A stretch of 64,000 nt of DNA from Myxococcales bacterium (GCA_009692555.1 SHYY01000007.1:3259-67258); one strand, 5' to 3'; positions 9,132-59,036 are shown, counted from the stretch's first letter. Numbers and translations are program-made. The notes: generated from the sequence alone by a model not told the origin.

Positions 9132-11210
9132 TCAGTTCCAGGTATCGGGGATCTGCGCGGGGTCGAGGTCGCGCAGGATCTCGGTCAGGAGCTTGAGCGC
9201 CTCCTTCGCCTGGCCGCCCGTCGCCGAGGGGGCGAAGGCCTTGATCTGCGCGAGGACCTGCGAGCGCGGCGCGCCGGCGAAGACCGGCAGGGTGACGCCG
9301 GCGTCGCGGTAGCCGGATTCGATCTTGGCCTTGTGGGTCGCGCTGAAGTGGGCGGTGATGTTCGGCCAGTGGCGGAGGTAGAGCGTGCGCGCGTTCATCA
9401 GCTTGAACTTCTCGAGCTCGCCGCCCAGGCGGTCGGCGTGCATCCCGGTGATGTTCTGGAGCAGCGTCTGGAGCTGGTCGAGCTGCGGCTTGTTGATCTC
9501 GCCCTGCTCGAACGCCTTGGTGTAGGTTGGGAGGAGCGCGTCCACCTCGGGGCGGATGTCCTCGTACGACATCTCGGCGTAGTGGCTCTTGGTCCCGTAG
9601 CCGGTCTTGTCGGTCCACACCGCGACGTTCTGGTCGCGCGGCCCCGAGCCCTTCCCCACGTCCTCGCGCGATTTGTCGACCCCGCCGCCGTCGTGGCCGC
9701 GCGAGCCCTTCTCCCAGTTGGCGATGTGGCGCGTCGAGCCGGTGCCGGCGCTCGGCGAGTAGCCGGCGTAGCCCCAGATCGTCTTAAGATTCGGGAACAT
9801 GCGGTGGTACTGCTCGAGCTTGCCGAGCTGGCCGGTGTTGCACGCCGAGAACATGAGATCTTCGACCTGCCCCGCGGCGATCGGGAAGATCGTGGTCAGC
9901 CGCTCCAGGTGCGGGAACGGGATACTGCCGTTCTCGTCGCCCCACACCGAGCTGCCCCAGCTGTGGCCGGAGATCACCATCCGCTTGAGCAGCCCCTTGC
10001 CGTGCTCGATCCCGTAGAGGTGGGCGATCATCTGCCACAGCTCGTCCTTCGCGCCGTCGCCCGACGCGGCCAGGAACTGGGCGATCTGCGCCGCCTTTTG
10101 CGGCGAGAGCCCGGGGAGCGAATCGAGGCAGGTCTGGATCCCCTGATCGCTGGTGAGGTCGGCCCACTTGCCGCCCACCTGCACCTGGTCCTGCTTGGTG
10201 GAGCCGGTGAGGCCGGTGACGTTGTTCGCCCCGGCGGCCTTCTTCAGCGTCGCCAGCTCGACGCCCTTCGAGTCGGGGTTCATGCCGAGGAAGGTGATCT
10301 GCTCGCGCTGGATGAAGTCGGTGAGCCCCTCGCCGCCGCCCTCCTGCGACAGCCACTGGATGGTGATATCGCCCGCGCAGCCGTCGGTGCCGAGCCCCTT
10401 TGCCTTCTGGAACGCGGCTATTTTCTGGACCAGCCCCTCGTTCATCTGGCCATTCGCAGCGCCGACGATCTTGGCGATCTGGGTCCACACCGGGACGGCG
10501 AGGTGCTTGGCGTTGTTGAAGCGCACCGCCGCGGCGGCCTGCGCGTGGGTGAGCGCCGTGCCGGCGTGCTCGTCGGGATCGAGCTGCACGCCGCGCCCCT
10601 GGGCGCCTGCGCCTGCGCTCGCCGCCGCACCGGGCCCCGCCTTCTCGCCCAGCAGCCCCTCGGCGGAGCGCCCGTCGACCACCGCCTGCGCGACCTGATC
10701 GGCGTGCTGCTCGTGCTCATCCCCGTCGGCGCCGACGCCCCCGCGGAGCTGCACCCCGCCGCGCTGCTGGACCACGTGGGCCGCCTCGTGCGCGGCCGTG
10801 AACAGGCTCGGCGACTCGCGAAACGCGACCTGACCGTCGGCAGCGTAGGCACTGGCGCCGAGCGCCTGGCTGGCGTTCTGGGCCGCCTCGCCCTGATGCG
10901 CGCGCACGTTGCTGACATCGAAGCGGCCGAACGAGCGGCCGATCGCCTCGCCGTGGGGAAGCGCGCCGCCGGTGCCCTGGAGGCCTTCCGCGGCGGTCTG
11001 GCGCGCTGCGCTCCCGTCGCTGGCCGAGGTGGACGCGGCCTGGCGGGCCTGGGCGTCGCTCCCCGGAGAGCCGGCCGCCATGCGCCGCTGGACCGCCGCG
11101 CTGGCCTGGCTGTTGGCGTCTCTCACCGACGGGGGCTGGTGCGCCGCCGCGTCCTGCGCCGCGCTGCTCGGGTCCGACTCGCTCTCGACGCTTCGCTGAC
11201 GCTCGCTCAT
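9132..11210 (-). CDS. DUF4157 (eCIS core) protein with a peptidoglycan-binding-like motif and a C-terminal caspase/CHAT-like (clan CD) domain
   Basis: [42 protein letters not shown] (DUF4157); [14 protein letters not shown] (PG-binding-like); MVISGHS...[10 protein letters not shown] (His/Cys dyad-like). Confidence 0.8.
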
Positions 11211-11257
11211 GGCAACTCTCCGTGCGCTGAAATCGTTAAAGGACTATCGCCGAAAGA

Positions 11258-12700
11258 TTATCGCCGATTCGGCGCCAACGTTGTGGATTTCGTCGGCCGC
11301 CTCGGGCCGGCGAAGACCACCCGCAGCCCGTCGGCGGGCGAGATGGTGATCCCCCGCATGATCGGGGTCGGCCGCGAACCGGTCGCGAGCGCGAGGTCGC
11401 AGGTCATCAGGAGCTCGGCCAGCACCACCTGCATCTCGAGGCTGGCGAAGGCCATCCCAATGCAGCGCCTTCGCCCGCCGCCGAAGGGAAAGAAGTGATT
11501 CGGCGAGACCTTGGCCTCGCCGAGGAAGCGCTCAGGACGGAACTCTTCGGGCGCGGGCCACAGGTCGGGCCGACGGTGCGTGAGGTAGATGCAGGGCCAG
11601 ACGATGGTCCCGGCCGGCGCCTCGCCGCGCTCGAGCGGGAGCGGCTTGATCAGCGAGCGGCCGACAGCGGGCGCGATCGGCGTGAGGCGCATCGACTCCT
11701 TGATGCAGGCGTCGAGGTAGGGGAGCTTGCGGGCCTTCGTGGCGTCGACTTTGCCGCCCGGGAAGGCTTCGTCGAGCTCGGCGCGCAGGCGGTCGAGGAC
11801 GTCGGGGCGCGCGAGGATGTGCCGGAGGGCCCAGCACAGCGCGTTGGCGGTGGTCTCGTGGCCACCGACGAGCAGCATGATCAGCTCGTCGATCAGCGCC
11901 CCGGTTTCGAGGGCGCGCCCGTCCTCGTAGCGGGCCGAGACGAGCAGCGCCATCACGTCGCGGCGATCGCCTGGGGGACGGACGCGGCACTCGGCGATCT
12001 CCTGCTCGAGGATCGCGATGATCTCCGCCTTGGCGTCGGCGAGGCGCTGCCACGGCAGCAGGCGCCAGGGGGCCGGCCCCTCGGGGTAGCGGGCTTGGCT
12101 GGCGGCGGCGGCGCGGTCGAGGAAGCGGCGGACGCGGGTGGCGGTGACCGCCATCGATACCAGGAAGACCAGCGGCGTGAGCGTGCCGTCGAGCCAGCGC
12201 GTGGTGAGGTGGCGCAGCCGCTCCAGGCGATGCCCCTCCGCGAGGCCGAACACGCAGGTCATGATCACCGAGAGGGTCACCCACTGCATCTCGGGATGCA
12301 TCGCGAAGGAGTCGCCCGGGCGAAAGGAGGCGATCCGCCGCGCGGTGACCTGCTGGATGAGGCGCGCGTAGCCCTCCAGGTGATCGCCGTGCAGCGGTGG
12401 GACCATCAGGCGGCGGTCGGCCAGGTGGCTCTCTCCGTCGAGAAACAGGAGTCCGCGCGCGCCGAGGTTGAGCGGGATGCTGACGTCGTGCGACACGTAG
12501 TGATCGGGCTCGAGGGCGAAGATCCGGCGCACGTCCTCGGGGTGGCTGCAGACGATGCGCGGCGGATCACCCGGCAGGCGCAGGGTGAACGAGTCGCCGT
12601 GGCGGCGCGCGCACTCGTCGAGGAAGCCGAACGGCGAGGCGCCGAAGCGCATGCCCTGGCGGAGGGGGTGGAGATCGGGACCGGGGGGAAGCTCGTTCAT
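11258..12700 (-). CDS. Cytochrome P450
   Basis: LLVGGHETT (I-helix), ESMR (ExxR) and FGGGRRRCIG (heme Cys). Confidence 0.95.
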   Translation of the reverse strand: MNELPPGPDLHPLRQGMRFGASPFGFLDECARRHGDSFTLRLPGDPPRIVCSHPEDVRRIFALEPDHYVSHDVSIPLNLGARGLLFLDGESHLADRRLMVPPLHGDHLEGYARLIQQVTARRIASFRPGDSFAMHPEMQWVTLSVIMTCVFGLAEGHRLERLRHLTTRWLDGTLTPLVFLVSMAVTATRVRRFLDRAAAASQARYPEGPAPWRLLPWQRLADAKAEIIAILEQEIAECRVRPPGDRRDVMALLVSARYEDGRALETGALIDELIMLLVGGHETTANALCWALRHILARPDVLDRLRAELDEAFPGGKVDATKARKLPYLDACIKESMRLTPIAPAVGRSLIKPLPLERGEAPAGTIVWPCIYLTHRRPDLWPAPEEFRPERFLGEAKVSPNHFFPFGGGRRRCIGMAFASLEMQVVLAELLMTCDLALATGSRPTPIMRGITISPADGLRVVFAGPRRPTKSTTLAPNRR

Positions 12701-12757
12701 GGGGGCTCTGGCAGTCCTTCGAGAGCCACGATGCACCGCCAGGCCACGCTCCCGAGT

Positions 12758-43867: not shown

Positions 43868-43979
43868 CTTTTCATTGAAAATCGCGGACTTGCGAACGAA
43901 GGAGCGCTGCACGCGGGCCGTCTCTGGTCTGTAAGTGCTCAGACAGTTTGCGGAAATTTACAAGAGCAACTTCTCCTCA

Positions 43980-43992
43980 GAATGGGCGATAA
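43980..43992 (+). promoter_or_regulatory. Motif GAATGGGCGATAA, shared with the upstream region of the other DUF4157 gene
   Basis: 12/13 identical to GAATCGGCGATAA (11270->11258, minus strand); 46 versus 47 nt before the respective ATG. Confidence 0.5.
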
Positions 43993-44038: not shown

Positions 44039-47000
44039 ATGGCTGAAAAAGCGATCGGCGCGGCGCTGCGGGCTCCCCGCAAGCAGACGGAGGAGCTCTC
44101 CCAGGAGCTCGCGGCGAACGAGCAGCTCTTCCAGAGCGGCGTCGAGCACGAGCTGCAGGCGCTGATCGCCCAGTACGGCCCGGATCCAGAACGGATCGTC
44201 GCGCTCCTCGGCGAGAAGGCGCCCTGGCAGCGCCGCCGCGCAGCCGAGCGCCTCGCCGCGGACTACGGCCAGGAGACCGCCGACATCCTGCTCCGCTGCG
44301 CCGCCAACCGCGCCATCTTCGACAACCATCACCCGGTGATCGAGCGCCTGCGCGGCGCCTCGAAGCGCGGTCCGAAGGGCCACGGTTTGCTGCTCGCCGA
44401 GGCGCTCAAGAGGCGCGCCCGGGGCCAACGCGCCAAGCTCCCCGAAAACCTCCGCGCCCGCACCCGCGCCCTCCCCGAGTCCGTCCGCGTCGGACTGGAG
44501 CGCACCGTCGGTGAGAGCGCCTCCAACATCCGCGTGCTGGCCGATCACGAGGCGGGCGAGGCGGTGCGCGCGGTGGGCGCAGTCGCCGCCACCACCGAAG
44601 GGATCATCCTCCTCTCCGAGGGGCGCTTCCGACCCGACACCGCCGAGGGGCAGGAGCTGCTCGCCCACGAGGCGGTGCACGCCCTCCAGCAGCGCGGCGG
44701 CGACGGCAGCGGGCTCTCTTCGGGCGCCGCCGAGCACGAAGCAGACGCCATCGCCGCAGAGGTCGTCGCGCCGCAAGAAGGCGCCGCGCGGATGCCGATC
44801 GCGGCGCCGGTCGGACGGCAGGCGATCGCGCGCAAGACCGACGCGGGCGCCCCCGCCGCGGCCACCAAGAAGACCCTCACCTTCAAGCTCGGGCAGACCA
44901 CCGCCAAGGCCACCCTCGATGTCCCGGGCGGCGACGCGGCGTCGGGCAGCGGCACCACGGTCAAGAGCAGCGAGCTGAAGCTGAGCGATCTGAACGCCCT
45001 CCTCCCCGAGGGGATCAAGTTCACCGACGCCACGGTCAAGGTGAAGATCAACGGCGAGAAGCTCGGCGCCGCGGTCACGATCAAGGCGAAGTACGAGGGC
45101 AAGGCGCCCTACCTGAAGCCGGTCGACTTCACGTTCAAGTGCGACACCGAAGGCAACCTCTCGGCGAAGGTCAAGCTGGAGCTCGACATCCCCGGCTTCT
45201 GCAACGCCAAGAGCGACGACATCGTGATCTCGAAGGAGGGGATCGACGCGGAGATCAAGATCACCACCGCGACCTTCAAGATCCCGGGGGTCGGCGGCGA
45301 GGGCGGCCTCACCGTCGCTGGCGAGCTGACCGCCAAGGTCAAGAAGAACCAGCTCGAGTCGATCGACGGCGAGGCGAACCTCACCCTCCCCGACGGCTTC
45401 GGGACGGCGAAGATCAGCGCGCAGGTGGCGGGCGGCAAGCTCGGTGAGGTCACCGCCGACGTCAAGAGCAGCGCCATCCCCGGCCTTGGCACGGTGAGCT
45501 GCAAGCTGAAGTGGTCCGAGAAGGGCGGCTTCGAGCTCGACAAGCTGGACGTCCCGGTCACCGCCATCCCGGGGATCAAGGGCAAGGTCGTCCTCTCCTA
45601 CAAGAAGGGCAAGGGCTTCGCCGTCGACGGGAAGGACATCAAGTTCACCGCCAAGGCGCTCGAGAAGCTCGAGATCAAGAAGGTCACGATCGACAAGAAC
45701 GGCCTCGCGGCGACGGTGAAGATCGCCGGGGTCAGCCTCGAGGTGCCCGGCTGGCTGAAGATCACCGGCCTGAAGGGCACCGTCGAGCTCAAGGGCGCGT
45801 CGGTGGCGTGCAAGGACGTCGGGGGCAACGTCGCGGTCGCGGACGGCAAGGCCAAGGGCACCTTCACCGCGTCGCTGGTCGACGGGGAGTTCAAGGCCAA
45901 GGGCAAGATCACCACGCTCACCGTGGCGCCGAAGATCATCACCATCGGCGCGGGCGGGCTGGCCTTCGATATCGATGTCGGCGGCGAGAGCAATAGCGCC
46001 GAGGTGACCGGCACCATCGCGATCAAGCTCGGCACGCTCGCCACCGGGAAGATCGAGAAGGTCGGCTTCAAGGACGGCTACTTCACCGGCAAGGGGGAGC
46101 TGCCGTTCACCAAGGGCGTGCTGAAGGGCTTGAAGATCAGCGTCGAGCTGCTCGCCGCGTCGCCCTTTGTCAAGGCGGAGATCGACGCCAAGAACCTGGT
46201 GGGCAAGAAGCTCGACGTATCCGTCCCGGGCCCCTACAAGGTCGATGTCACCTGCACCAAGGCCAACCTCAAGCTGTCGGGCGATCTCTCGGATGTGGAG
46301 GGAACGATCGGCGGCTCGGTGAAGGTCGACGGCGGCAAGCTCGCCGAGGGCGACTTCGAGCTCAAGGCCGAGAAGGGGAACGTCGAGGGCGATCTCAAGG
46401 TCAAGGTGAAGGAGATCCCCGGCCTGAAGATGAAGGGCGGGGAATTCAAGCTTCACGTCAAAAACGACAAGATCACCACAGGCTCCGGAGACGCCACTTT
46501 CACCTTCGAGAAGTTCGTCAAGGGCGACGTCAAGGTCGCCTACTCCACCGCCAAGGGCTTCTCGATCGAGGGCAAGGGGCTGACCGTCGACATCCCCGGA
46601 TTCCCGTTCGATATCAAGCCGTTCGACGTCGCCTACGCCGACGGGAAGTTCAGCGCCAAGAACGTCACCGGCGTGCTCAAGCCGGGCAAGGTCCCCGGGG
46701 TCCAGACCGCCACCGTGGTGGTCAACTTCGTCGACAACAAGCTGAAGATCGAGCTCAAGGACGTCGCCTTCACCATCCCGCAGCTGAAGAAGACCTCGCT
46801 GTCGGCGAAGTGGGACGACGGCAAGTGGGAGGTCGCGGGCGAAGCCGATCTCGACCTGCCGAAGGGCCTGAAGTGCAAGGCCAAGTTCGGCGCCGACAAC
46901 GGCAAGGGCAACGACCTCAACTTCAACTGCTCGATCGAGCTGTCGACGACGGAGCTGAAGAAGATCATCCCGGGCGTGGAGGTCACGTCGGGGAAGATCA

Positions 47001-48631
47001 CCTTCAAGTACCAGGACGGCAAGCTCACCTGCGAGGGCGGGGAGCTCGGGTTGAAGCTCGCCAACGGCGTGCTGGCGGGGAGCCTGAAGTTCACGCTCAA
47101 CGAGGACAAGACCTTCAACGCGACCGGCAAGTTCAAGCTGACGCTGAAGTTCATCAAGGCGAAGGAGATCGAGGTCAAGGTCACCAACAACGTGCTCGAG
47201 CGCGTGGCGGTCACCGGCCTCGAGCTCGACCTCCCGGCGGGCAAGGGCAAGGGCGCGCTCACCGGCGACGCGAGCTACGACAACGGCAAGTTCAACTGCG
47301 CGCTGACCGCCCAGATGACCGACCTGCCGTGGGTGGCGCAGGCGTCGGCCACCGTCGTGATCAAGGACGGCAAGTGGGAGAAGTTCGAGGCCACCGGGCA
47401 GCTCAAGAAGACCCCGGGGATCGATCTTTCGGGGATCAAGTTCGGCGGCAAGCTGGCGGGCGGCGAGCCCTCGTTCTTCGCCGACGGCACCGTGCCGATC
47501 ACCGGGATCAAGGACCCGCTCAAGTTCCACCTGCTGATCAGCGCGAGCAAGTTCGAGGTCGGCCTCGAGGGCTCGTTCGAGATCAAGGGGCTCGGCAAGG
47601 CGACGGTGAAGGCCGATCTGTCGAACGACGGCTTCCGCGCCGAGCTGACCATCGCCCCGACGAACACCAAGCTGGTCAAGAAGGCGAGCGGCTTCATCGA
47701 GTACAAGGGTGGCACCCTCACCTTCGGCGGCGAGGTCACGATCGTCATCGCCAAGGAGTTCGAGGGCAGCGTCAAGTTCGCCAAGCTCGCCGACGGAGAC
47801 TTCGAGTTCAAGGGCACGATCAAGCCGACCAGCACCGGCGGCGGCGAGAGCAAGAAGAAGAAGCTTTTCTACAAGGCGATCGAGCCGCCGGGCGTCGCGA
47901 TTCCCTACGGCATCCCGGGGCTGCTCGACGTGCACATCGGCGCGGGCGTCAAGGGCAGCCTCGAGGCCGGCATCTACATGCCGGCGTTCAAGTTCCTCGG
48001 CGCGACGGTGTCGGGCAAGCTGTCGGAGCTCGAGAAGGGCGATCTGCCGAACGCCGAGGTGCGGGTGCAGGCCTCGGCGGGCGCGTACGCGGAGGCCAGC
48101 CTCGGGGCGCGCGTCTACGTCGGCGCGAGCGTGCTCGGGGCGAGCCTCGATCTCCAGGGCGAGGCGACCGCCAAGCTCGAGGCGAAGGCGATGATCAACG
48201 CCGCCGCGACGCTGGTGAAGGACGGCAGCAACTACAAGTTCACCGCCGAGCTGAACGCCGAGCTGGGCGCGGCGCTGAAGCTGGCGATCGGGCTCGCGCT
48301 GGTGCTGAAGTTCGTCGGCGCGGAGCTGTGGCGGCACGGGCTGGCCTCGAAGGAGCTGGCGCTGGGCGAGTTCAACCTCGGCAAGTTCCCGCTGAAGAAG
48401 CTCGAGTACACCTTCGGCGGACCGAAGAAGGAGCCGGCCAAGGAAGAGGTCACGCCGCCCGAGCCGAAGACCGACATCATCAAGAACGCCGGCCTCGAGA
48501 TGGGCAAGCAGAAGGCCGCCGAGGCGAAGGACGAGGCGATCCGCAAGGTGAAGGAGTCCAAGGCCTACAAGGCGGCGGCGGCGGTGGCCAACGCGGCCTC
48601 GAAGGCCTGGAACTTCGTCACCAGCTGGTAG
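44039..48631 (+). CDS. Giant (~1530 aa) DUF4157 (eCIS core) protein with a long Lys/Gly-rich beta-strand repeat region
   Basis: LPESVRVGLERTVG..IRV..GAVAATT..FRPDTAEGQELLAHEAVHALQQ, followed by about 1200 aa of alternating-hydrophobic beta strands. AAG-rich codon bias supports this strand. Confidence 0.85.
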   Translation: MAEKAIGAALRAPRKQTEELSQELAANEQLFQSGVEHELQALIAQYGPDPERIVALLGEKAPWQRRRAAERLAADYGQETADILLRCAANRAIFDNHHPVIERLRGASKRGPKGHGLLLAEALKRRARGQRAKLPENLRARTRALPESVRVGLERTVGESASNIRVLADHEAGEAVRAVGAVAATTEGIILLSEGRFRPDTAEGQELLAHEAVHALQQRGGDGSGLSSGAAEHEADAIAAEVVAPQEGAARMPIAAPVGRQAIARKTDAGAPAAATKKTLTFKLGQTTAKATLDVPGGDAASGSGTTVKSSELKLSDLNALLPEGIKFTDATVKVKINGEKLGAAVTIKAKYEGKAPYLKPVDFTFKCDTEGNLSAKVKLELDIPGFCNAKSDDIVISKEGIDAEIKITTATFKIPGVGGEGGLTVAGELTAKVKKNQLESIDGEANLTLPDGFGTAKISAQVAGGKLGEVTADVKSSAIPGLGTVSCKLKWSEKGGFELDKLDVPVTAIPGIKGKVVLSYKKGKGFAVDGKDIKFTAKALEKLEIKKVTIDKNGLAATVKIAGVSLEVPGWLKITGLKGTVELKGASVACKDVGGNVAVADGKAKGTFTASLVDGEFKAKGKITTLTVAPKIITIGAGGLAFDIDVGGESNSAEVTGTIAIKLGTLATGKIEKVGFKDGYFTGKGELPFTKGVLKGLKISVELLAASPFVKAEIDAKNLVGKKLDVSVPGPYKVDVTCTKANLKLSGDLSDVEGTIGGSVKVDGGKLAEGDFELKAEKGNVEGDLKVKVKEIPGLKMKGGEFKLHVKNDKITTGSGDATFTFEKFVKGDVKVAYSTAKGFSIEGKGLTVDIPGFPFDIKPFDVAYADGKFSAKNVTGVLKPGKVPGVQTATVVVNFVDNKLKIELKDVAFTIPQLKKTSLSAKWDDGKWEVAGEADLDLPKGLKCKAKFGADNGKGNDLNFNCSIELSTTELKKIIPGVEVTSGKITFKYQDGKLTCEGGELGLKLANGVLAGSLKFTLNEDKTFNATGKFKLTLKFIKAKEIEVKVTNNVLERVAVTGLELDLPAGKGKGALTGDASYDNGKFNCALTAQMTDLPWVAQASATVVIKDGKWEKFEATGQLKKTPGIDLSGIKFGGKLAGGEPSFFADGTVPITGIKDPLKFHLLISASKFEVGLEGSFEIKGLGKATVKADLSNDGFRAELTIAPTNTKLVKKASGFIEYKGGTLTFGGEVTIVIAKEFEGSVKFAKLADGDFEFKGTIKPTSTGGGESKKKKLFYKAIEPPGVAIPYGIPGLLDVHIGAGVKGSLEAGIYMPAFKFLGATVSGKLSELEKGDLPNAEVRVQASAGAYAEASLGARVYVGASVLGASLDLQGEATAKLEAKAMINAAATLVKDGSNYKFTAELNAELGAALKLAIGLALVLKFVGAELWRHGLASKELALGEFNLGKFPLKKLEYTFGGPKKEPAKEEVTPPEPKTDIIKNAGLEMGKQKAAEAKDEAIRKVKESKAYKAAAAVANAASKAWNFVTSW

Positions 48632-56885: not shown

Positions 56886-56896
<11 letters not shown>
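55106..56896 (+). CDS. FAD-linked oxidase, vanillyl-alcohol oxidase/p-cresol methylhydroxylase family, carrying a 55-aa in-frame insertion
   Basis: YPVSGGRNWGYGS, VEPGVTF, SVIGNAVERG, CGLEVVLPTGE, GLFSQSNLGVVT and LDPRGILAPGRY. Confidence 0.9.
56286..56459. mobile_element. 165-bp in-frame insertion (hexamer repeats plus REP-like hairpin) bounded by 9-bp direct repeats
   Basis: AGGGGGCGA at 56286-56294 and 56451-56459; stem CCCTCTCCCGC-AC-GCGGGAGAGGG at 56421-56444. Confidence 0.75.

Positions 56897-59036
<2,140 letters not shown>

Follow-up and report, generated by a model that had tools for sequence, protein, structure and literature searches.

Two genes of the DUF4157/eCIS_core family (PF13699), both encoding putative cargo of an extracellular contractile injection system (eCIS), lie on opposite strands of a 64,000-nt stretch of DNA (contig C15:3259-67258, hereafter the window) from a draft metagenome-assembled genome (MAG) of a Myxococcota bacterium (6.1 Mb, 70% G+C), and a shared 13-mer precedes both at nearly the same distance. 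Does this sequence mark a common control element, and which genes would it control? The last eight bases of the 13-mer belong to an oriented two-part box that is present in about 30-35 strong copies in the genome, precedes injection-machine, cargo and DNA-handling genes, and is conserved in related genomes. It is very likely, judging from sequence, that the two 13-mers hold the -10 elements of one promoter class, which is read by an alternative sigma factor and co-transcribes a regulon of ~30-35 units. New in this proposal would be a sigma-28-type promoter class with a changed -35 element and a matching change in the -35-reading helix of the candidate sigma factor (SKSWxSRLH).

The two copies of the 13-mer lie where the original prediction had placed them, copy 1 (GAATCGGCGATAA) at 11270->11258 on the minus strand, 47 nt before ATG 11210, and copy 2 (GAATGGGCGATAA) at 43980-43992 on the plus strand, 46 nt before ATG 44039. 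With at most one mismatch, GAATSGGCGATAA has 2 matches in the window compared with 0.02 expected, a number reached in 0 of 100 shuffles, and no copies of the 13-mer other than these two exist in the 6.1 Mb. The core octamer alone, with 2 matches against 0.79 expected, is not significant in the window; its significance is reached only genome-wide and in combination with a -35 box. As a working unit the full 13-mer was nevertheless discarded, as the octamer alone recurs genome-wide: the element consists of the last 8 of the 13 bases, and the GAAT in front of them falls into a variable, non-conserved spacer. The original prediction had further pointed at GAAATnnACAA blocks upstream of both copies. 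These are found at the positions given, 10 and 16 nt upstream, but the -35 element is instead ACAAC (11284-11280) or GCAAC (43966-43970), 14 nt before the octamer. GAAATnnACAA was likewise rejected as a -35 element, with 5 copies in the genome, of which the 3 outside the window do not lie at box sites, and with varying offsets from the actual GCAAC. The elements and genes concerned are the following.

11258..11265, minus strand: candidate -10 element GGCGATAA of promoter 1, identical with the final 8 bases of the 13-mer; 26.6 bits on the position weight matrix (PWM) introduced below
11280..11284 (read 11284-11280), minus strand: candidate -35 element ACAAC of promoter 1 (consensus GCAAC)
43966..43970, plus strand: candidate -35 element GCAAC of promoter 2; the next two bases, TT, match the extended consensus GCAACTT
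43985..43992, plus strand: candidate -10 element GGCGATAA of promoter 2, 14 nt past the -35 element; 30.0 bits on the PWM
11281..11291 (read 11291-11281), minus strand: upstream block GAAATCCACAA, 10 nt upstream of copy 1
43953..43963, plus strand: upstream block GAAATTTACAA, 16 nt upstream of copy 2 and outside the conserved box
9132..11210, minus strand: DUF4157/eCIS_core gene for putative eCIS cargo of 692 aa with a variable C-terminus (PF13699, E 4.6e-10)
44039..48631, plus strand: DUF4157/eCIS_core gene, 1530 aa, putative eCIS cargo (PF13699, E 5.9e-18)
11258..12736, minus strand: cytochrome P450 gene (PF00067, E 5.3e-69), with promoter 1 within its last codons

From GAAATCCACAA, only the terminal ACAA belongs to the -35 element ACAAC and the remainder is not common to other promoters of the class, while GAAATTTACAA ends 2 nt upstream of the GCAAC of promoter 2. 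The non-conserved GAAT of promoter 1 is contained in its 14-nt spacer (11279-11266, minus strand). As the original prediction had cautioned, the TAA of the promoter 1 octamer doubles as the P450 stop codon; the same octamer matches the one common to ~30 sites genome-wide. Both window proteins score well above the PF13699 gathering cut-off of 22 (40.0 and 65.3 bits for the 692-aa and the 1530-aa protein, respectively) and keep the HExxH motif, in one of them as AHEAVHALQQ and in the other within a different ten-residue stretch. BLASTP finds this HExxH core alone in common between them (E = 0.084), and the two upstream regions share the 13-mer and the GAAATnnACAA block and nothing else. Since proteins and upstream regions are otherwise dissimilar, the match is not the remnant of a recent duplication, and a duplicated upstream region was ruled out as its origin. 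Neither site has a detectable sigma-70-like promoter, and no Rfam RNA element was found at site 2. A weak terminator-like hairpin (6 pairs, then ATAATCTTTC) at 11262-11280 on the minus strand, where the P450 gene ends, overlaps promoter 1 (1 found compared with 0.2 expected); it is unable to account for the promoter class.

Genome-wide, G[CG]CGATAA occurs in 51 copies, and 17 of these are preceded, at 14-15 nt, by GCAAC with no more than one mismatch. In its short form the resulting two-part box reads cGCAACTT-N11/12-(G/A/T)(C/G)CGATAA, the -10 being preceded by yT in the class consensus, and 27 seed sites yield the consensus cGCAACTTyc-N-yT-GCCGATAA-yc. The distance from GCAAC to the octamer in these seeds is 14 nt at 16 sites and 15 nt at 11, which equals N11 or N12 after GCAACTTT. 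Octamer positions are strongly constrained (G 25/27, C 21/27 with G in 4/27, C 27, G 27, A 27, T 22/27, A 26/27, A 27), and both window copies carry the uncommon G at position 2. GCAAC(TT) forms the -35 element in 25-27 of the 27 seeds; with TAAAGTTT, the -35 element of the E. coli sigma-28 consensus, it has no more in common than the AA and the TT(T) after it. A genome scan with a PWM built from these pattern-chosen sites identified 35 sites of at least 20 bits versus 1 in the reversed-sequence control, and 47 versus 3 at a threshold of at least 18 bits. Nearly all strong sites are oriented toward a start codon 2-221 nt downstream. Hits of about 14-20 bits are mostly intragenic noise together with a dispersed repeat: an identical 28-mer, GCAACAAATTCCTCCTGCCAACCGACAA, is found in more than 20 dispersed copies on more than 20 contigs (for example C10:930, C29:169 and C182:9147), is part of a repeat element and reaches 14.8 bits on the PWM by accident, which inflates low-threshold counts.

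Box targets, identified by Pfam or by sequence, comprise most of the cargo genes. Seven of the ten PF13699 genes in the genome have a box 33-81 nt from the start codon (two on C15 and one each on C40, C127, C175, C66 and C130), and in five of the ten an exact G[CG]CGATAA lies 35-47 nt before the start codon. Finding 7/10 among 31 sites corresponds to a hypergeometric P of about 1e-14. The eCIS gene set, known from the genes alone, further includes PF14065 (Pvc16_N/DUF4255; two genes), PF04984 (four), PF06841, PF05954 and PAAR-like genes. A box precedes the sheath operon on C182, where it lies between the Pvc16_N gene and the first sheath gene (sheath 1), two genes for 310-aa tube-domain proteins (Phage_T4_gp19), a gene for a Phage_GPD baseplate-hub protein and two PAAR-like genes, plus a third PAAR-like reading frame with an ambiguous start codon. 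Two calpain-family proteases (Peptidase_C2) and several orphans complete the box-preceded putative cargo, and the machine and cargo genes with a box are scattered over at least 15 contigs. The original idea of a sigma-28-like -10 element marking a regulon of scattered eCIS cargo is thus supported by seven of ten PF13699 genes and by the machine genes. The enrichment test proposed with it came out in its favor, with a box before these seven genes, the sheath operon and genes of relatives; three DUF4157 genes lack it.

A regulon dedicated to cargo, as had been envisaged, is too narrow a description, since the box also precedes genes for DNA handling: comEC (domains Competence, DUF4131 and Lactamase_B), radA, recN, recQ, a Bro-N/DinD-like gene and two integron-integrase-like genes. 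A separate box-preceded gene encodes a secreted Lactamase_B protein. No flagellar genes are located downstream of any site of at least 14 bits in the genome scan, and type III secretion genes were not seen among the targets either. Membership in the SOS/LexA regulon was considered and rejected. Two copies of recA (a third, partial recA hit was not scanned) and two copies of uvrA have no box at 8 bits or more, and the region upstream of lexA, with a box match of 8.1 bits that is only at noise level, has a GTTCAG-containing palindrome of its own. The box regulon is therefore separate from SOS. The palindrome, LexA-box-like (TTCAGTAACTTACTATTTGTTCAGT), lies on C169 ~200 nt upstream of lexA (32837) and is followed by ~5 tandem copies of CACCGCAT before the gene.

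Several target loci have features of their own. At C175:24026(-) and 24128(+), two back-to-back boxes ~100 nt apart precede a conserved 204-aa DUF4157 protein and a divergent 249-aa orphan, and the ortholog of the 204-aa protein in relative G008 also has a box. Boxes of high score lie 30 and 65 nt upstream of the two integron-integrase-like tyrosine recombinases (C53:804 and C24:19888), whose N-terminus is YSPRTEEAYLHWIRQFLRFH. A short N-terminal motif, LQ(L)KADG ... AIKRM/VQRRM followed by G/A, is common to box-preceded proteins with and without DUF4157 (C161:26745, C269:17772, C127:4180 and, on C15, the window protein at 9132-11210), with RMxLLAxRxRxxQRK in G008 homologs; it may constitute a common signal for loading into the injection machine. 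Within the window, positions 56886-59036 encode an AAA+ ATPase with a winged-helix domain (PF00004 and PF22977) of a type known from eCIS loci, in a run with an FAD oxidase and FtsX/MacB permeases and with no box upstream.

The box extends beyond this genome, whose nearest named relatives are Myxococcales/Polyangia MAGs. Genomes of families f1 and f2 each contain 9-24 exact matches to GCAAC-N14/15-GCCGATAA, compared with 0-1 to the reversed pattern; counts are low in a third family because the octamer there is A/TCCGATAA. In G008, which belongs to another family, a box precedes sheath, tube-domain, PAAR, spike-like, DUF4157, recQ and comEC genes, and the start codons of recQ and comEC follow 7 nt past the octamer. 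The box is found before radA in at least 13 relatives, with a variable spacer and with the octamer ending 6-11 nt before the start codon, and before sheath 1 in 23 of 26 loci from all three families, 80-100 nt ahead of the ATG. Its association with the machine and with radA is stable. The first sheath protein itself (own copy C182:29491-30777) shows 82-94% identity across 37 of the 41 genomes from the order, a conservation that looks like vertical inheritance of a core function; eCIS are usually reported as patchy, unlike this order-wide distribution. The sheath 5' untranslated region (~80-95 nt from box to ATG; own copy C182:29449-29541) contains hairpins, whose stems change compensatorily in family f2 (CACCAG...CTGGTG versus GCGAG...CTCGC) around a conserved GTGGCGC loop; an automatic consensus fold of the region, on a poor alignment, yielded no pairs. 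Cargo genes are less uniform. A strong box is located upstream of 14 of the 30 DUF4157 loci in eight relatives, and no full-length ortholog of the 692-aa window protein exists, its N-terminal ~200 aa alone being shared, on variable C-termini; a locus-specific footprint from full-length orthologs was for that reason discarded. As the box is patchy on DUF4157 genes and on homologs of the 692-aa protein, the association with cargo genes is frequent, not universal.

We infer that the box is a promoter. In several genomes only 6-11 nt separate the end of the octamer from the start codons of radA, recN, comEC and recQ, so little that no room is left for another promoter and leaderless mRNAs would result. 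According to the proposed mechanism, an alternative sigma factor would read the promoters of the class and co-transcribe machine, cargo and DNA genes. The predicted regulon would include the sheath operon, the extra tube-domain, GPD hub and PAAR genes, 7/10 DUF4157 genes and the two calpain-like putative cargo genes, as well as a DNA set of comEC, the secreted metallo-beta-lactamase-fold protein, radA, recN, recQ, the dinD-like gene and the two tyrosine-integrase genes. Transcription is predicted to start ~7 nt past the octamer, near 11250 and 44000 in the window, which would give leaders of ~40 nt for both window genes and leaderless mRNAs for radA, recN and comEC. A single specialized sigma factor thus probably switches on the machine, most of its scattered cargo and a few DNA-uptake and repair genes together.

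The genome contains one full-length FliA/WhiG-like gene (C241:25198-25971, 258 aa), located two genes upstream of a YscJ/FliF-family lipoprotein gene and not in a flagellar cluster. Closest solved structures of its product are FliA (9wsf, 6pmi) and WhiG (6pfv). Region 2 aligns closely with FliA, whereas the region 4.2 helix reads SKSWASRLH compared with SESRVSQLH in FliA, and this SKSW-type helix (SKSWxSRLH) is found in all orthologs of the order. It is also found in the homologs of all five distant box-rich genomes of the phylum that were examined (G093, G154, G120, G130 and G089, the last with 37 exact boxes); not a single box match was obtained in 10 genomes of the phylum in which the best homolog carries the canonical TESRV(S/C)Q helix. 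In G120, a box lies ~41 nt before the start codon of the SKSW-type sigma gene. Given that the box is a promoter, its reader is, on this comparison, fairly likely the divergent, SKSW-type FliA/WhiG-family protein at C241:25198-25971. Presence or absence of the sigma gene across the order was uninformative as a predictor, the gene being present in 39 of 41 genomes. A flagellar remnant that looks partly decayed on C71 (19300-20700) contains flbD, a motA split by a stop codon, flgF/G and flgK, and a small open reading frame between motA and flgF encodes a FliA-like region 4 alone (LSLYYVEEFGYAEIGAVLGVSESRVCQLHARAL). Flagellin was not found in the genome by tblastn.

A number of observations weigh against this reading of box and sigma factor. 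The core-position scores of the PWM are partly circular, owing to the way its sites were chosen; the exact-pattern counts with their reversed control are free of this circularity. The genome is 80% complete. Three of the ten DUF4157 genes and a second eCIS-like cluster (C274) are without a box, and among the ~20 homologs that the 692-aa protein has in relatives, 17 lack one and 3 have it. The candidate sigma factor scores 148.6 bits on TIGR02479, below the curated cut-off of 189.6. No box was found within 1.5 kb of its gene in 12 genomes of this lineage, and its autoregulation there was accordingly rejected. Finally, several genomes with an SKSW-type sigma factor have only 0-3 exact box matches, so presence of the sigma factor alone does not predict enrichment.

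The last three of these points bear on a different explanation, in which the promoter class is real but is read by another sigma factor, such as one of the extracytoplasmic function (ECF) type, and the SKSW-type protein does something else. The -35 boxes of many ECF sigma factors contain AAC, which the GCAAC element resembles, and the FliA-like gene, with a product under the family cut-off, has no box of its own in this lineage and is also found where a genome has no exact match at all. However, an octamer GCCGATAA and an N11 spacing characterize sigma-28 promoters and not ECF promoters (PMC8325347, PMC3627812). The helix change lies exactly in the -35-reading part and the -10-reading part is conserved, five distant lineages have the SKSW helix and the box together, and in G120 the SKSW-type sigma gene is itself preceded by a box. 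We therefore regard a reader of another type as unlikely.

An alternative to a promoter read by the SKSW-type or any other sigma factor would be an operator, with the two-part motif bound by an activator or repressor such as a DNA-damage or quorum regulator. The recN, recQ, radA and dinD-like part of the regulon does resemble a damage response, and Myxococcus is known to have damage regulators that work independently of LexA (DdiA, PMC12288472). The motif, however, is asymmetric and oriented, its spacing is fixed at 14/15 nt, and it is always upstream of a gene and faces it. Its downstream half is identical to the -10 consensus of sigma-28, the window sites show no sigma-70-like promoter next to it, and its end, 6-11 nt before several start codons, leaves no space for a separate promoter. 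We consider an operator quite improbable. That the window match is due to chance, a duplicated upstream remnant or, at copy 1, a P450 terminator is hardly credible: the overlapping terminator-like hairpin, the lack of significance of the octamer alone in the window and the uncommon G and spacer GAAT shared by both copies speak for it, but two 13-mers arise in 0/100 shuffles, proteins and upstream regions are otherwise unrelated, the unrelated flanks of the sites argue against copies of a mobile repeat, and the box is found upstream of ~30 unrelated genes in this genome and, in dozens of genomes, upstream of the orthologous sheath and radA genes.

The unexpected presence of comEC, radA, recN, recQ and integrase genes in the proposed regulon suggests a link between injection and DNA acquisition or damage handling, and the combined regulon could serve as a programme of predation, or "kill and take up DNA", or else of damage or stress. 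A more specific version, a "kill, take up, recombine" programme in which an ex-flagellar sigma-28 descendant fires the injection system and its cargo together with genes for DNA import and recombination, is put forward as a speculation that we ourselves think doubtful. If true, an order-wide, vertically inherited injection system with scattered cargo would operate alongside ComEC-dependent DNA import, RadA, RecN, RecQ and integrases, joined by a secreted metallo-beta-lactamase-fold nuclease candidate and a predicted secreted metallophosphatase/5'-nucleotidase-like protein, as a myxobacterial counterpart of the coupling between type VI secretion system (T6SS) and competence in V. cholerae. The box would then also be a sequence tag for otherwise unrecognizable eCIS cargo, including the calpain-like proteins and 249-aa and 1362-aa orphans without DUF4157. 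Regulation and cargo of eCIS are poorly known, cargo being recognized mainly via operon position or DUF4157, and the box offers a purely sequence-based listing of candidate cargo across a whole order of uncultured Myxococcota. A further prediction is that one sigma factor acts as the single switch and that expressing it could turn the system on in a heterologous host.

How does the proposed promoter class compare with known systems? The E. coli sigma-28 consensus is TAAAGTTT-N11-GCCGATAA, with which GCAACTTT-N11-GCCGATAA aligns. Class 3 flagellar promoters, read by sigma-28/FliA, SigD or WhiG, have the consensus TAAA-N15-GCCGATAA (PMC8325347) and thus an identical -10 octamer at the same spacing; they differ in the -35 element, which is TAAA there and GCAAC here, and in their flagellar targets, which are missing here. 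Likewise, the candidate sigma factor is best matched by FliA and WhiG, but its score is below the family cut-off and its -35-reading helix is SKSWxSRLH, not SESRVSQLH.

Re-use of such promoters has precedents. The attack-phase regulon of FliA in Bdellovibrio bacteriovorus (TTAAG-N16-CCGATA, 92/140 attack-phase promoters) drives surface proteins, proteases and many unknown proteins (PMC3627812). There, too, a sigma-28-type promoter with a modified -35 element has spread far past flagellar genes; the lineage is a predatory one that used to be placed among the 'deltaproteobacteria'. Its -35 element is a different one, and the regulon described here is small (~30-35 units), centered on contractile injection, cargo and DNA uptake and repair, and without flagellar genes. 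WhiG regulons of Actinomycetota, found by a consensus search of intergenic regions, serve sporulation in Streptomyces and type IV pili in Rubrobacter (PMC8325347). They are alike in that a sigma-28-family factor is re-used for a non-flagellar programme, but WhiG keeps the canonical TAAA -35.

Regulators adjacent to eCIS operons include RfaH-like anti-terminators and GerE/LuxR-type and BTAD proteins (PMC8213781), and eCIS of Streptomyces depend on bldA (PMC10020575). These known regulators also control eCIS operons and 3' toxin genes, but act locally, whereas here one promoter class would join the machine with dispersed cargo genes. Neither a sigma-defined eCIS regulon nor a GCAAC/GCCGATAA box was found described in the literature searched. 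DdiA of M. xanthus, a LexA-independent damage response affecting RecN and RecQ (PMC12288472), is a different regulator in a different order, and SOS-controlled R-tailocins (PMC12066065) provide a further context. The latter differ from the present case in that recA, lexA and uvrA lie outside the box regulon.

In Vibrio cholerae, the T6SS belongs to the TfoX/QstR competence regulon. The machine described here is of the eCIS type, with a Pvc16_N terminator, and the type of regulator is another one, but in both cases a phage-tail-like weapon would be co-regulated with comEC and recombination genes, a resemblance that concerns a similar possible role and not membership in the same system.

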